A DNA stretch of 64,000 nucleotides from a virus, in the IMG/VR virus record IMGVR_UViG_3300027736_000021. One strand, given 5' to 3'. The position numbers were made by a program, and so were the translations under genes. How positions within the stretch are numbered: the stretch's first letter is position 1; the number at the start of each line of letters is the position of its first letter. Under the pieces are notes generated by a model. The model made no database searches, was not told the DNA's origin, and saw nothing but the letters and a program-made list of their open reading frames with translations. Shown here piece by piece: positions 2,303-8,982 of the stretch.

Positions 2303-2628
2303 TGCCAACTTATAATTTTATTGATACTGAAACAGGTGAAGAATTTGAATTGTTTATGAAATGGTCGGGACGTGAAACCTTTCTTAAAGAAAATCCTCAT
2401 ATACAACCAATACTAACCGCACCAGCTATCGTGTCAAGTGTTGCAGGTATGGGTTCACACCGAGTGCCTGATGGATTCAAAGAAGTATTATCAAAGGTAG
2501 CAGAGAAACATCCTGGCTCGGCTGTAGGTGAAAAATATGGTAGGAAATCTATCAAAGAAGCAAGAACAGCTCAGGTTGTTAAAAAACACGTTGATAGAAT
2601 TACGAAACGATTACAAAGTAAAAAATGA
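2302..2628 (+). CDS. Conserved phage protein with an FmdB-like N-terminus (Zn ligands absent)
   Basis: MPTYNF...TGEEFE and DGFKEVL motifs. Confidence 0.55.
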   Translation: MPTYNFIDTETGEEFELFMKWSGRETFLKENPHIQPILTAPAIVSSVAGMGSHRVPDGFKEVLSKVAEKHPGSAVGEKYGRKSIKEARTAQVVKKHVDRITKRLQSKK

Positions 2629-3299
2629 CATTTGAGCATATTAAATTACCTGAATTAGATTTTGATTTAGAAGCAGTAACAACAGAAAGCGGTAGACAGT
2701 ATAAAACACCAAAGGGTAATTCATACCCATCGGTTACAACCGTTCTTTCATCTTACAATAAGAAAGCCATTTATGAGTGGCGTGCTCGTGTAGGTGAAGA
2801 AGAAGCAAATAAGATTTCTGGTAAAGCCTCAAGGCGTGGTACCGCATTACATACCGTTTGTGAAAAGTATTTACTCAATGAGATGAACGAATTGAGGATG
2901 CAAACGATGATGCCAAACATTAAAGAATTGTTTTTACAGTTGAGGCCAGAGTTAGACCAAAATATTGGTAAAATCTATTCATTAGAACAGGCGCTTTATT
3001 CTGATGGATTAAAAATCGCTGGCCGTGTTGACTGTATCGCTGAGTGGGATGGAGAATTGGCGGTCATTGACTTTAAAACCTCTAGTAAAGAGAAATGGGA
3101 AGATGGAATTCTTAATTACTTCATGCAATGCTCGGCATATGCAGAAATGTTTGGTGAAATAACAGGCAAACCTATAAATAAATTGGTGGTGGCAATTGCC
3201 GTTGAAGAAGGCAAACCACAGATATTTGTAAGGGATAAAGAACCTTACCTGCCTCAATTAAAACAGTATATTGCCAAATATTACTTGACAAATAACTAA
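2625..3299 (+). CDS. PD-(D/E)XK (Cas4/RecB-like) exonuclease
   Basis: YPSVTTVL, RGTALH, E..LYS, AGRVDCI, IDFKTS, Q..AYA motifs. Confidence 0.85.
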   Translation: MTFEHIKLPELDFDLEAVTTESGRQYKTPKGNSYPSVTTVLSSYNKKAIYEWRARVGEEEANKISGKASRRGTALHTVCEKYLLNEMNELRMQTMMPNIKELFLQLRPELDQNIGKIYSLEQALYSDGLKIAGRVDCIAEWDGELAVIDFKTSSKEKWEDGILNYFMQCSAYAEMFGEITGKPINKLVVAIAVEEGKPQIFVRDKEPYLPQLKQYIAKYYLTNN

Positions 3300-3313
3300 A
3301 ATAGGTGTATAAT
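3285..3313 (+). promoter_or_regulatory. Consensus sigma70 (early) promoter
   Basis: TTGACA (3285-3290), 17-nt spacer, TATAAT (3308-3313); upstream of two small ORFs and the tmRNA. Confidence 0.85.
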
Positions 3314-3319
3314 AGCTGT

Positions 3320-3445
3320 ATGAATAAATATTGGAAGAAGCTCTGCACACCAGAGCAAAATGAAAGACAGATTGGTGCCTTAAAGATATTAGCTGGTGGC
3401 CTATCTTTACTTTTTATCATTTGGTTTTTAGGGAATTATCTATAA
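3320..3445 (+). CDS. 41-aa single-pass membrane protein
   Basis: MNKYWKKLCTPEQNERQIGALKILAGGLSLLFIIWFLGNYL*; ATG 6 nt after the -10 box. Confidence 0.6.
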   Translation: MNKYWKKLCTPEQNERQIGALKILAGGLSLLFIIWFLGNYL

Positions 3446-3552
3446 TGCCAGATAAGAATTGTGTAGATAAAGTCCGTGCTAGTCGTGCTAATTTTTATTT
3501 TGGCGTAGTTGCTGTAGCAATTATTGCTCTAATAATTTTTTTGAATTCGTAG
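3445..3552 (+). CDS. 35-aa single-pass membrane protein
   Basis: MPDKNCVDKVRASRANFYFGVVAVAIIALIIFLNS*; TAATG overlap. Confidence 0.55.
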   Translation: MPDKNCVDKVRASRANFYFGVVAVAIIALIIFLNS

Positions 3553-3554
3553 AA

Positions 3555-3860
3555 GTTTTTAGAAAGTTATTTTGGACGGCAGTTCAATTCTGCCCACCTC
3601 CACCAAAAGTATATTGACGAACCGAGTTATCGGTAGCAAACACACATTATAGTTGTGGCAATATACTTCTGATGGGGGTGCCAGGTTTCGACAGAGTAAT
3701 AAGTATAAAAATGGAGAATCGTCAATGCTAAAGACGATAGGGTTGAGGATACTCGGCCGAAGAAGCAATTGAATTAACCGCAAACGATAATAAGTTCGCA
3801 TTAGCAGCCTAAAAACTGCTTAGGGTTTTGGTGAGTTCCTAGTAACAGAATACTCACCAC
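3555..3860 (+). ncRNA. ssrA: Circularly permuted (two-piece) tmRNA
   Basis: T-arm GGCAG-TTCAATT-CTGCC (3578-3594) and CACCTCC-A-CCA (3595-3605) precede the 5' acceptor strand GGGGGTG (3674-3680; G3.U70 Ala identity pair) and D-loop CCAGGTTTCGAC; intervening segment closed by a 10-bp stem; tag ORF ANDNKFALAA* at 3780-3812; outer ends approximate. Confidence 0.93.
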
Positions 3861-3969
3861 AAATTAGTAAGTCTTTGCTTGGTACAGTTCCCGATATCCT
3901 TGCTTTGATATCTTGGTCTGATTGATAGCGACAAACTGATTATATTATCAACTTTAATTGGAGTTTAAC

Positions 3970-4101
3970 ATGAAAAAACTAATCGCTCTCGTAGCTGCAA
4001 CTTTCGCTGTAACAGCATTTGCTCAAGCACCTGCTAAGAAAGAAGAAGCAAAGAAAGATGCACCAAAAGCTGAAGTGAAGAAAGAAGAAAAGAAGAAGTA
4101 A
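3970..4101 (+). CDS. 43-aa secreted Lys/Glu/Ala-rich peptide (not in ORF track)
   Basis: MKKLIALVAATFAVTAFA|QAPAKKEEAKKDAPKAEVKKEEKKK*; GGAG SD; Sec signal peptide with AFA cleavage site. Confidence 0.8.
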   Translation: MKKLIALVAATFAVTAFAQAPAKKEEAKKDAPKAEVKKEEKKK

Positions 4102-4115
4102 TTCTTTAAGGCTTC

Positions 4116-4150
4116 GTGGGTGGCCTTCTTCAAAACACCCACACCATTTT
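4116..4150 (+). terminator. Possible intrinsic terminator or hairpin
   Basis: GTGGGTG...CACCCAC stem followed shortly by TTTTT; large loop. Confidence 0.35.
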
Positions 4151-4163
4151 ATTATGAGATAAT

Positions 4164-4403
4164 ATGCCTTTATTCGTTGAAAAAATTGAGCCTGTAAAAG
4201 AATTACAGAAAATTGAAATTCAACCAGCAGTTACAAAGGTTGAAAATTCATCAGTTGGTGATTACGAATTATTGTTTATAATATCTCTTGTTCTGGTAAT
4301 CTATCTACTAAGAGCACCTCTACTTGCCTTATGCTTATTTGTTTTTAAGTTAGGCATCATCTCAATTTTTGCCTACTGTGGCTACATTTTAATGATACAA
4401 TAA
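4164..4403 (+). CDS. Membrane protein (two predicted TM segments)
   Basis: Hydrophobic C-terminal half. Confidence 0.6.
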   Translation: MPLFVEKIEPVKELQKIEIQPAVTKVENSSVGDYELLFIISLVLVIYLLRAPLLALCLFVFKLGIISIFAYCGYILMIQ

Positions 4404-6724: not shown

Positions 6725-6948
6725 TGCCAACTAAAGACGAAATGATGAAGTTTGCAATAGCAATTGATAAATTGGTTGCTGAAACAGACTACAACTACAT
6801 TGAAGCGATTGTGGAACATTGTAAGCGCACAGGATTGGAAATTGAAGTGGCCTCGACTTTGGTGAATGCCAACCTCAAATCTAAAATTGAAAATGATGCA
6901 ATGGAAAACAATTTATTAAAGAATAAAAGCCCTAGATTGCCACTATGA
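6724..6948 (+). CDS. gp33: Late promoter transcription co-activator gp33
   Basis: YIEAIVEHC...EIE..STLVNANLKSKIENDA...NLLK; synteny 33-59-32. Confidence 0.85.
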   Translation: MPTKDEMMKFAIAIDKLVAETDYNYIEAIVEHCKRTGLEIEVASTLVNANLKSKIENDAMENNLLKNKSPRLPL

Positions 6949-7532
6949 CAGGCTATGAAGCATTTTCAATATATCATACTCTAAAATTACACTTCACCAG
7001 CGATTACGATTATTTCAAGTATAATGGTAAGTGTAATATCAGTCCCACTACATTTGAAAATCGTAGGGACAAATACCATTTCTATAAACTGTCCCGTAAG
7101 TATCCAAATAAAGAACAATTTCAGAATTTTGTAATTGCCAACCTATTTGAGAATAGTGAGGCATGGGCAGGCACACTATTACAACCTGAAGCTGAGGTAA
7201 ATTACCTATTACGGCAGAAGGTAGTTCAATCCCTATCGTATACCTTTGAGAATGATTGTAAAGTTATTTTTGAAGATTGTAAAGATCCTAATGAATTATT
7301 GTCAACGAATGGAGACCATCCAAGACTGTTAACGATGGCTTTACGCAAAGAGATATCACCAGAAACACTAATCGTCCTAAACGCAATCCTGCAATTCTTA
7401 CCGATGTGGGATAGGAAGATTACCGATACAATACGATGGCCAGATTACCGAAGAAAACTAACCAAGTATGCCTCTTTTCTTACCTTTGATACTGTAAAAT
7501 ACAAGTTGTTATTAAAGAAGATTATATTATGA
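6945..7532 (+). CDS. gp59: Helicase loader gp59
   Basis: LKLHFTSDYDYFKYNGK, RRDKYHFYKL, ISPETL. Confidence 0.9.
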   Translation: MTGYEAFSIYHTLKLHFTSDYDYFKYNGKCNISPTTFENRRDKYHFYKLSRKYPNKEQFQNFVIANLFENSEAWAGTLLQPEAEVNYLLRQKVVQSLSYTFENDCKVIFEDCKDPNELLSTNGDHPRLLTMALRKEISPETLIVLNAILQFLPMWDRKITDTIRWPDYRRKLTKYASFLTFDTVKYKLLLKKIIL

Positions 7533-8097: not shown

Positions 8098-8982
8098 ATG
8101 AGTTCATTTGCAAACCTAAAGCGCAATCGTAGTTCGTTGGATAAACTTACTAAGGCGATTGAAGCTACTCAATCCGGCAGTTCTGAAGCCGGTTCAAAAG
8201 ACGATACTCGCTTTTGGCAACCATCAGTAGATAAATCTGGTAACGGCATGGCGGTCATTCGCTTTCTGCCAGCACCAGCAGTTGACGGTGATGACGCCTT
8301 ACCGTGGGTTCGCACATTCAGTCATGGATTTCAGGGACCTGGCGGTTGGTTTATTGATAACTGCTTGACCACTTTGAATGATAAGTGTCCTGTTTGTGAA
8401 CACAATAATACATTATGGAATTCTGGAATTGAAGCTAACAAAGAGATTGCTCGCAAACAAAAACGCAAGTTGTCTTATGTTGCTAACATTCTAGTTGTGT
8501 CTGACCCAAGTAATCCTGATAATGAAGGTCAAATCAAACTGTTTAAGTTTGGCAAGAAAATCTTTGATAAGATTACAGAGGCGATGAATCCTGAATTCGC
8601 TGATGAAACACCAGTTAACCCATTTGATATGTGGGAAGGTGCTAATTTCAAATTGAAGATTCGTAATGTTGAAGGTTATCGTAATTATGATAAATCGGAG
8701 TTTGCTGATTCATCTCCATTATTTGAAGGTGATGATGCTAAACTAGAAGAATTGTGGAAGAAAGAGTTTTCTCTCAAAGAGTTTACTCAGAAGTCGCAGT
8801 TCAAACCTTATGAGCAATTAAAAGCTCGTTTGGATAAAGTTCTAGGCTTTGATGGTGAAGTTGTAAGAACCAAAGCTGAATCTGCTGATATCAGTCCTTT
8901 CAAAGACGATGATGTTGTCTTAAAGTCTGGTGTTGAAGATGAAGATTTGGATTACTTCAAATCACTTGCTGAAACAAAGTAA
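8098..8982 (+). CDS. gp32: Single-stranded DNA-binding protein gp32
   Basis: D.RFW, GNG.AVIRFLP, H.FQGPGGW.I.NCLTT, CPVC, FGKKIFDKI, acidic tail. Confidence 0.97.
   Translation: MSSFANLKRNRSSLDKLTKAIEATQSGSSEAGSKDDTRFWQPSVDKSGNGMAVIRFLPAPAVDGDDALPWVRTFSHGFQGPGGWFIDNCLTTLNDKCPVCEHNNTLWNSGIEANKEIARKQKRKLSYVANILVVSDPSNPDNEGQIKLFKFGKKIFDKITEAMNPEFADETPVNPFDMWEGANFKLKIRNVEGYRNYDKSEFADSSPLFEGDDAKLEELWKKEFSLKEFTQKSQFKPYEQLKARLDKVLGFDGEVVRTKAESADISPFKDDDVVLKSGVEDEDLDYFKSLAETK

Follow-up and report, generated by a model that had tools for sequence, protein, structure and literature searches.

The analysed stretch, 64,000 nt of DNA from IMG/VR virus record IMGVR_UViG_3300027736_000021 (hereafter the window), contains a phage-encoded, circularly permuted (two-piece) tmRNA gene with a complete tag frame. 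In general, tmRNA releases ribosomes that have stalled and tags incomplete proteins for degradation. We identify the gene as a permuted tmRNA because two independent detectors, covariation and synteny with published phage ssrA genes all point to it. We consider it likely that the gene is a functional phage-borne ssrA of the permuted beta type, passed down in a lineage of T4-like myophages that are aquatic and uncultured.

The sequence-only reading of this locus had proposed a permuted tmRNA with an intact tag, and had named ARAGORN and the Rfam covariance models as the means to check it. Across the 64 kb, the only RNA gene called by ARAGORN was a permuted tmRNA (tmRNA*) at positions 3513-3903 of the plus strand with the tag ANDNKFALAA. 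The Rfam model for permuted tmRNA (RF04321, tmRNA_permuted) matched positions 3545-3812 with 107 bits (cut-off 47, E 7e-20), while the beta-type model (RF01850, beta_tmRNA) matched positions 3495-3886 with 87.5 bits, marginally above its cut-off of 84. The proposal was therefore borne out by a tmRNA* call and by two models above their curated thresholds, as well as by the covariation and synteny described below. The 323-nt precursor was predicted to fold at -92.8 kcal/mol as compared to -69.4 kcal/mol for shuffled sequences (z -4.9; 0 of 100 shuffles as stable), and this fold recovered the T-arm, the acceptor stem, the intervening-segment hairpin, the PK1 hairpin, the tetraloop hairpin and the 3' hairpin.

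All sequence and structural hallmarks of tmRNA are present in the window gene, PK1 as a candidate pseudoknot (Table 1). The tRNA-like domain comprises a 7-bp acceptor stem with G3.U70, a discriminator A, an encoded CCA, a T-arm and the D-loop analogue GGUUUCGAC. Every coordinate given in the sequence-only reading matches the window sequence. This applies to the tRNA-like 3' half upstream of the 5' half, with its CCA end at 3605 and G1 at 3674, to the 68-nt intervening segment with its 10-bp closing stem and to the G3.U70 pair in the acceptor stem. It also applies to a P2-type pairing, which corresponds to proximal helix 2, to the pk1-like hairpin ATCGTC/GACGAT, to the resume codon at 3780 and to the 3' hairpin (GGTGAGT...ACTCACC). 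The tag stop had been placed within a GCAG/CTGC hairpin, and the TAA indeed sits in the loop of that hairpin.

Table 1. Positions of the tmRNA gene, its parts and neighbouring features in the window.
Feature	Position	Strand	Description	Basis
PDDEXK exonuclease	2625-3299			
Sigma-70 promoter	3285-3313	+	TTGACA-17 nt-TATAAT; 12/12 consensus positions	
ORF1	3320-3445	+	41 aa, hydrophobic C-terminus	translation
ORF2	3445-3552	+	35 aa, MPDKNCV..., basic stretch then transmembrane helix	translation
Acceptor piece	3545-3605	+	helix 2 distal and proximal 5' strands, T-arm, acceptor 3' strand, encoded CCA	Rfam alignment, RNAalifold, pair counts
First tmRNA helix	3545-3548 with 3716-3719	+		
Helix 2, proximal	3566-3574 / 3692-3700	+	9 bp, GTTATTTTG / CAGAGTAAT	
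T-stem	3578-3582 / 3590-3594	+	GGCAG/CTGCC; T-loop TTCAATT	sequence
Acceptor 3' strand	3595-3601	+	CACCTCC, then ACCA to 3605 (discriminator A and encoded CCA)	
Intervening segment	3606-3673	+	68 nt, predicted to be removed on maturation	
Closing stem	3607-3616 / 3659-3668	+	10 bp, AAGTATATTG / CAATATACTT	
Inner hairpin of intervening segment	within 3606-3673	+	CCGA-GTTA-TCGG, then TAGCAAAC	
Coding piece	3674-3858	+	acceptor 5' strand to 3' hairpin	sequence, Rfam, RNAalifold, fold, pair counts
Acceptor 5' strand	3674-3680	+	GGGGGTG; 7-bp stem with CACCTCC, giving G3.U70	
D-loop analogue	in coding piece	+	GGTTTCGAC	
PK1 hairpin	3718-3723 / 3733-3738	+	ATCGTC/GACGAT; stem 1 core 3720-3723/3733-3736	
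Tetraloop hairpin	3741-3758	+	after PK1	
Tag frame	3780-3812	+	GCA resume codon at 3780, ANDNKFALAA, TAA 3810-3812	ARAGORN
3' hairpin	3830-3858	+		
Helicase loader gp59	6945-7532			
gp32	8098-8982			

The 18 nearest relatives and the window all classify as beta-type (RF01850) and have the same flanking phage genes. When an explicit structure was scored over 19 phage copies, 85.4% of cells were paired as compared to 74.5% in shuffles, two-sided changes were found at 30 of the 50 pairs (reached by 0 of 500 shuffles), and the covariation score was 0.32, versus 0.05-0.14 for slid-partner controls. The register of the 3' hairpin in this count is off by a gap (43.9% paired); the RNAalifold register is valid, and RNAalifold detected compensatory change at 27 of the 44 pairs in the alignment of 19 copies. 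Two-sided changes had occurred at all four pairs of the PK1 stem 1 core and at four of the five T-stem pairs, both the proximal 9 bp of helix 2 and the distal helix covary, and G3.U70 was invariant (19/19). In the near-identical relative L001, the 3' hairpin shows compensatory changes and helix 2 A-to-G changes opposite U, while the flanking ORF diverges freely.

The closing stem of the intervening segment changed on both sides at all 10 pairs among relatives. Since bacterial beta-type genes have an equivalent stem, we regard it as a trait of the lineage; it is probably a processing platform. A different intervening segment, read from the alignment, was observed in the tmRNA at L098:6615-7053 (minus strand), where it is 170 nt long and contains a 52-codon ORF (MDEQDKLKELQ...).

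Several further pairings were considered. In the window, distal helix 2 pairs only in a register one base off the clade consensus. The candidate second stem of PK1 (TGCT/AGCA) amounts to 3-4 bp by eye, and no two-sided changes were seen in it among the copies. An AGGG/TCCT pseudoknot after the tag was 90.8% paired, yet it showed one-sided changes only and is thus unproven. Base pairing between the conserved loop of the 3' hairpin and the acceptor-piece 5' end was rejected, since this 5' end covaries with its distal helix 2 partner. Separately, the window holds a perfect 9-bp complement, AGTTTTTAG / CTAAAAACT (3554-3562 and 3809-3817), by which the tag stop codon would be paired with the acceptor-piece 5' end; in the MFE fold it competes with middle helix 2, and more distant relatives do not keep it. 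A scan for intrinsic terminators detected none 3' of the gene, so that 3858 is a provisional 3' end for the coding piece.

The tag is likewise conserved. Of the tags counted in 97 phage copies, 94 have AA at the end (78 of them LAA) and 87 start with AND or ANE. The tag ANDNKFALAA recurs in nine further IMG/VR copies (10/97 counting the window), and the exact tag was absent when its back-translation was searched in 185,579 bacterial species genomes. Purifying selection maintains both the structure and the tag.

By its gene content, the window belongs to an uncultured, aquatic T4-like myophage. The flanking genes are T4-like, encoding a dexA-like exonuclease subunit, the PDDEXK exonuclease, gp59, gp32, a baseplate hub, baseplate wedge subunits and tail fibres, and the G+C content is 30-40%. 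The closest cultured phages, as judged by gp6 amino acid identity, are the Methylophilales (OM43) phage Melnitz (41%), the Pelagibacter phages HTVC008M and Mosig (~40%) and cyanomyophages (~37%). No match was obtained at the DNA level among 50,697 phage records, a set that may exclude the phage's own record, neither by blastn with the tmRNA region nor by megablast with 25 kb, and the phage is known only from metagenomes. The nearest virus record (G001), a 37%-complete fragment, has no tmRNA.

The tmRNA gene holds a conserved slot downstream of the PDDEXK nuclease gene. A pattern scan of IMG/VR yielded 120 loci with 45 permuted tmRNAs. At nuclease-anchored IMG/VR loci with enough downstream sequence, a permuted tmRNA follows on the same strand and within 1.6 kb in 47 of 73 cases (about two thirds); locus L157 (G030) was left out of all analyses. 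Buchholz et al. (2022, PMC9004378) surveyed 18,146 phage genomes and reported 53 permuted tmRNAs, of which 50 belong to aquatic phages; of 47 Melnitz-like contigs, 17 had permuted tmRNAs. The earlier remark that phage tmRNAs are uncommon is thus an understatement for the aquatic T4-like group. A tmRNA database of 2025 lists 79 phage sequences (PMC11915505), and one-piece phage tmRNAs have been on record since at least 2014 (PMC4131195).

Closely related copies differ in a mosaic fashion. Relative to L186 and L187, of which the nuclease is 97% identical to that of the window, sequence identity is 97-100% for the promoter, for ORF1, for the intervening segment and for the tag, and 96-98% for the region of the 3' hairpin. 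It amounts to 87% for the acceptor piece, 69% for the acceptor-plus-helix-2 segment and 65%, with an additional 24-nt indel, for the PK1 region. The differences in helix 2 are compensated, close relatives having GTTGTTGTG/CATGGCAAT where the window has GTTATTTTG/CAGAGTAAT. Moreover, in 22 of 63 copies, including L184-L191 and L247-L249, a second T-loop class (UGCRAWU) replaces UUCRANU. The UGCRAWU loop mostly goes with the D-loop analogue AGAUUCGAC or AGAUUUGAC and not with GGUUUCGAC, while the window and L001 retain the canonical UUCAAUU together with GGUUUCGAC. This pattern may reflect co-variation of a tertiary contact. The two T-loop classes and the mosaic divergence indicate that the gene evolves by module exchange, in which the tRNA-like domain, the PK1 module and the intervening segment appear to recombine as cassettes within the beta-type phage clade.

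Two observations concern the intervening segment in this respect. Over window positions 3545-3779, comparison with the near-identical phages L184-L188, L247 and L248 gave, for the two mature segments that pair, 87% identity in the acceptor piece and 65-69% in the 5' half of the coding piece, and 99-100% for the 68 intervening nucleotides between them. Its inner motif ACGAACCGAGTTATCGGTAGCAAAC (3619-3645) is common to 16 of 63 distinct phage copies, which besides the window are L002, L012, L060, L184-L190, L204, L218 and L247-L249. This motif forms a CCGA/TCGG hairpin (CCA/TGG in L012) and is seen with either T-loop class, as though the spacer were mobile or under its own constraint.

The sequence-only reading had proposed a comparison with bacterial ssrA genes as a way to find the host. 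In trees of the mature-RNA core, the window nests inside clades made up of phages only (2, 18 and 34 sequences; support 99, 100 and 97, respectively). The deeper nodes of these trees mix phage and bacterial sequences and are unrooted. Bacteria with the exact acceptor stem and the permuted layout are high-GC Oxalobacteraceae and Azoarcus. In a sample of the order to which these belong, a strong permuted or beta-type tmRNA was found in only 4 of 151 genomes, and in a sample of one family of that same order in only 4 of 61. The four carriers of the family sample have small genomes (1.7-3.0 Mb) and a locus G+C content of 36-45%. Their tmRNAs have the PK1 sequence of the phage clade, a similar 3'-hairpin loop and tags that include ANDESYALAA and ANDENFALAA. 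These low-GC carriers are the best lead to a donor or host lineage, although their identity is only ~80% over 100-135 nt. As a side observation, permuted tmRNAs of Oxalobacteraceae (L121-L143) include odd tags, either without an LAA end (ANEPQFVAYGT, ANESQFLAYGT) or very long (VNNVYAK...), and a Noviherbaspirillum MAG among them has two permuted copies on separate contigs.

In a quick tree without a root, the beta-type clades of high-GC bacteria fall among phage sequences. It is a long shot, but conceivable, that aquatic T4-like phages have been vehicles and not just recipients of the permuted gene form, exchanging it with three bacterial lineages. The partners would be cyanobacteria, SAR11-type Alphaproteobacteria and some Betaproteobacteria, which are the lineages with the permuted form and also host groups of the phage assemblage.

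The promoter that the sequence-only reading had placed at 3285 stands, with 12/12 consensus positions. The arrangement TTGACA-17-TATAAT is kept in all close relatives (L001, L184-L191) and directly precedes the tmRNA in L189-191 and L247, which have no small ORFs. This promoter probably drives the tmRNA unit early. Another promoter-like stretch at 3509-3537, which falls in the promoter columns of the beta model, was rejected as it is not kept in L001. An Rfam scan of positions 3100-4300 (E up to 10) showed neither an RF01739 glutamine riboswitch nor any other credible family. The tmRNA is separated from the next gene by a non-coding spacer of 111 nt (3859-3969), which is common only to L186 and L187 (100%) and missing from L001, L184 and L185; its fold is not significant (z -1.1). 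The spacer is followed by an ORF for 43 aa (3970-4101) that has a good Shine-Dalgarno sequence; its product (MKKLIALVAATFAVTAFAQAPAKKEE...) has an N-terminus like a signal peptide and a tail rich in lysine and glutamate. This ORF is kept downstream of the tmRNA in L001, L184 and L185.

In the reading we favour, that of a functional ssrA, host RNA polymerase would transcribe the tmRNA early from 3285 together with the two small ORFs. Host RNase P would cleave before G3674, 3' processing would free the encoded CCA at 3605, and the 68-nt intervening hairpin would be discarded, with the acceptor stem and helix 2 holding the two pieces together. Host alanyl-tRNA synthetase (AlaRS) would charge the RNA via G3.U70 and A73. 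Host SmpB would then bring it to stalled ribosomes, the phage having no SmpB of its own, and EF-Tu would also be the host's; compatibility with host SmpB and AlaRS is an assumption. Translation would resume at GCA 3780 and append (A)ANDNKFALAA, a ClpXP-type degron. Infection would thus proceed with a raised capacity for ribosome rescue. This would be the usual pathway of a two-piece tmRNA, dependent on host RNase P, AlaRS, EF-Tu and SmpB. The further suggestion of the sequence-only reading, that the gene makes up for host tmRNA cleaved by toxins or by nucleases of defence systems, is speculative.

The position of the two small ORFs raises the question of a more specialised role. Two small membrane-protein ORFs between promoter and tmRNA characterise the sub-lineage of the window, and a PHROGs search matched no family to the small ORFs. 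ORF1 is 80-100% conserved in L001, L186 and L187, its changes being conservative, and overlaps ORF2 through TAATG (3443-3447). The ORF2 family is kept in L001 and L184-L188, and all its members end in ..S-TAG inside a common TTCGTAG; this stop (TAG 3550-3552 in the window) lies within the first tmRNA helix, where relatives without ORF2 read TTG. Whichever ORF leads (an ORF2-type gene comes first in L184 and L185), the first ATG is always 6 nt past the -10 hexamer, and the transcript is therefore probably leaderless. If the acceptor piece were cut out upstream of 3550, the ORF2 message would lose its stop codon. The RNA could thus control its own operon, with the product of a non-stop ORF2 mRNA being tagged and destroyed, or it could tag host proteins for amino-acid recycling, as suggested by Buchholz et al. 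(2022; PMC9004378). Such a regulatory job would fit with the embedded TAG of every ORF2-type gene and with the single leaderless transcript that the constant ATG spacing implies. We nevertheless consider it unlikely, since the 5' end of the mature acceptor piece is not fixed and selective tagging is conjectural, and since L189-191 and L247 keep the tmRNA without upstream small ORFs, which shows that the tmRNA is independent of the ORF arrangement.

The dependence on host factors could also be read differently. As the sequence-only reading had stated for the window, no SmpB gene was detected there by tblastn, nor in two 100%-complete relatives (170.8 and 169.5 kb), and a phage without its own SmpB must draw on the host pool. 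The RNA might then mainly be a competitor or decoy for host SmpB, EF-Tu or ribosomes that damps or redirects trans-translation, as proposed for the RNA of mycobacteriophage DS6A, which consists of the tRNA-like domain (TLD) only; a TLD-only molecule is reported to inhibit tmRNA strongly (PMC4131195). A decoy, however, needs the tRNA-like domain alone, while the full tag frame with its resume codon, stop and degron grammar is kept in 94 of 97 phage copies, and helix 2, PK1 and the 3' hairpin covary. This makes a mere decoy a distinctly improbable explanation. That the gene is a non-functional passenger, i.e. a host ssrA fragment from imprecise prophage excision or an attachment-site remnant, is scarcely credible: although ssrA is a common integration site and temperate phages contain fragments of it (PMC9004378), the window gene is complete and sits in a T4-like phage, no integrase was found among the larger ORFs scanned against PHROGs, the gene occupies one syntenic slot across dozens of divergent relatives with compensatory evolution, and its exact tag is missing from the 185,579 bacterial species genomes.

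The functional phage ssrA that we favour bears on the question why lytic phages carry their own ribosome-rescue RNA. The window locus does not overturn current understanding, and it shows that the beta type, as well as the published alpha type, fills the conserved slot in Melnitz-related phages. It also belongs to a gene that is common in these phages (~two thirds of relatives) and evolves by module exchange. Since a two-piece ssrA was described in the phage Melnitz (Buchholz et al. 2022, PMC9004378), this kind of tmRNA was already known; a literature search found no experimental processing, charging or tagging for any phage two-piece tmRNA.

The SsrA of Melnitz EXVC044M (MZ577097.1, gene 86) and those of the pelagiphages Mosig and HTVC008M are the closest parallels, Melnitz being a T4-like aquatic myophage with a circularly permuted gene and without SmpB. 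The order of its slot is PDDEXK nuclease, two small ORFs, SsrA, late-transcription coactivator, helicase loader gp59 and ssDNA-binding protein gp32, and the window tmRNA lies in the matching slot; both genes are located just downstream of an early-type promoter. In contrast to the window gene, which is beta-type (RF01850), the Melnitz SsrA classifies with the alpha type (RF01849, 106.7 bits), and 3' of it lies a glutamine riboswitch (RF01739, 52.8 bits) of a kind that the scan of the window locus did not find. The window further differs from Melnitz in its two small, probably leaderless ORFs between promoter and tmRNA, the second of which stops inside the tmRNA, and in its mosaicism, the mature pairing segments differing among near-identical phages while the intervening segment stays identical. 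No nucleotide similarity between the window clade and Melnitz, Mosig or HTVC008M was detected outside the tRNA-like domain, and consensus-like clade members match cultured phages only across this domain. Mycobacteriophages of the Bxz1 group, Bacillus phage G and, with its TLD-only RNA, DS6A (PMC4131195) likewise carry a phage-borne rescue RNA that relies on host SmpB. Their RNAs, however, are standard non-permuted or TLD-truncated, and their phage lineages and hosts are unrelated to those of the window.

Bacterial beta-type genes (RF01850; Azoarcus, Oxalobacteraceae and the low-GC genomes) share the gene order, the helix set and the stem-closed intervening segment with the window gene, and their tags (ANDENFALAA, ANDESYALAA, ANDERFALAA) are of the same family. 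The phage intervening segments are longer and vary more (26-170 nt versus 21-49 nt in bacterial beta-type genes), and the window scores 87.5 bits with RF01850 as compared to 277 for Azoarcus. Unlike its bacterial counterparts, the window tmRNA has an additional tetraloop hairpin after PK1, does without a terminal terminator hairpin and is embedded in a predicted polycistronic phage transcript.
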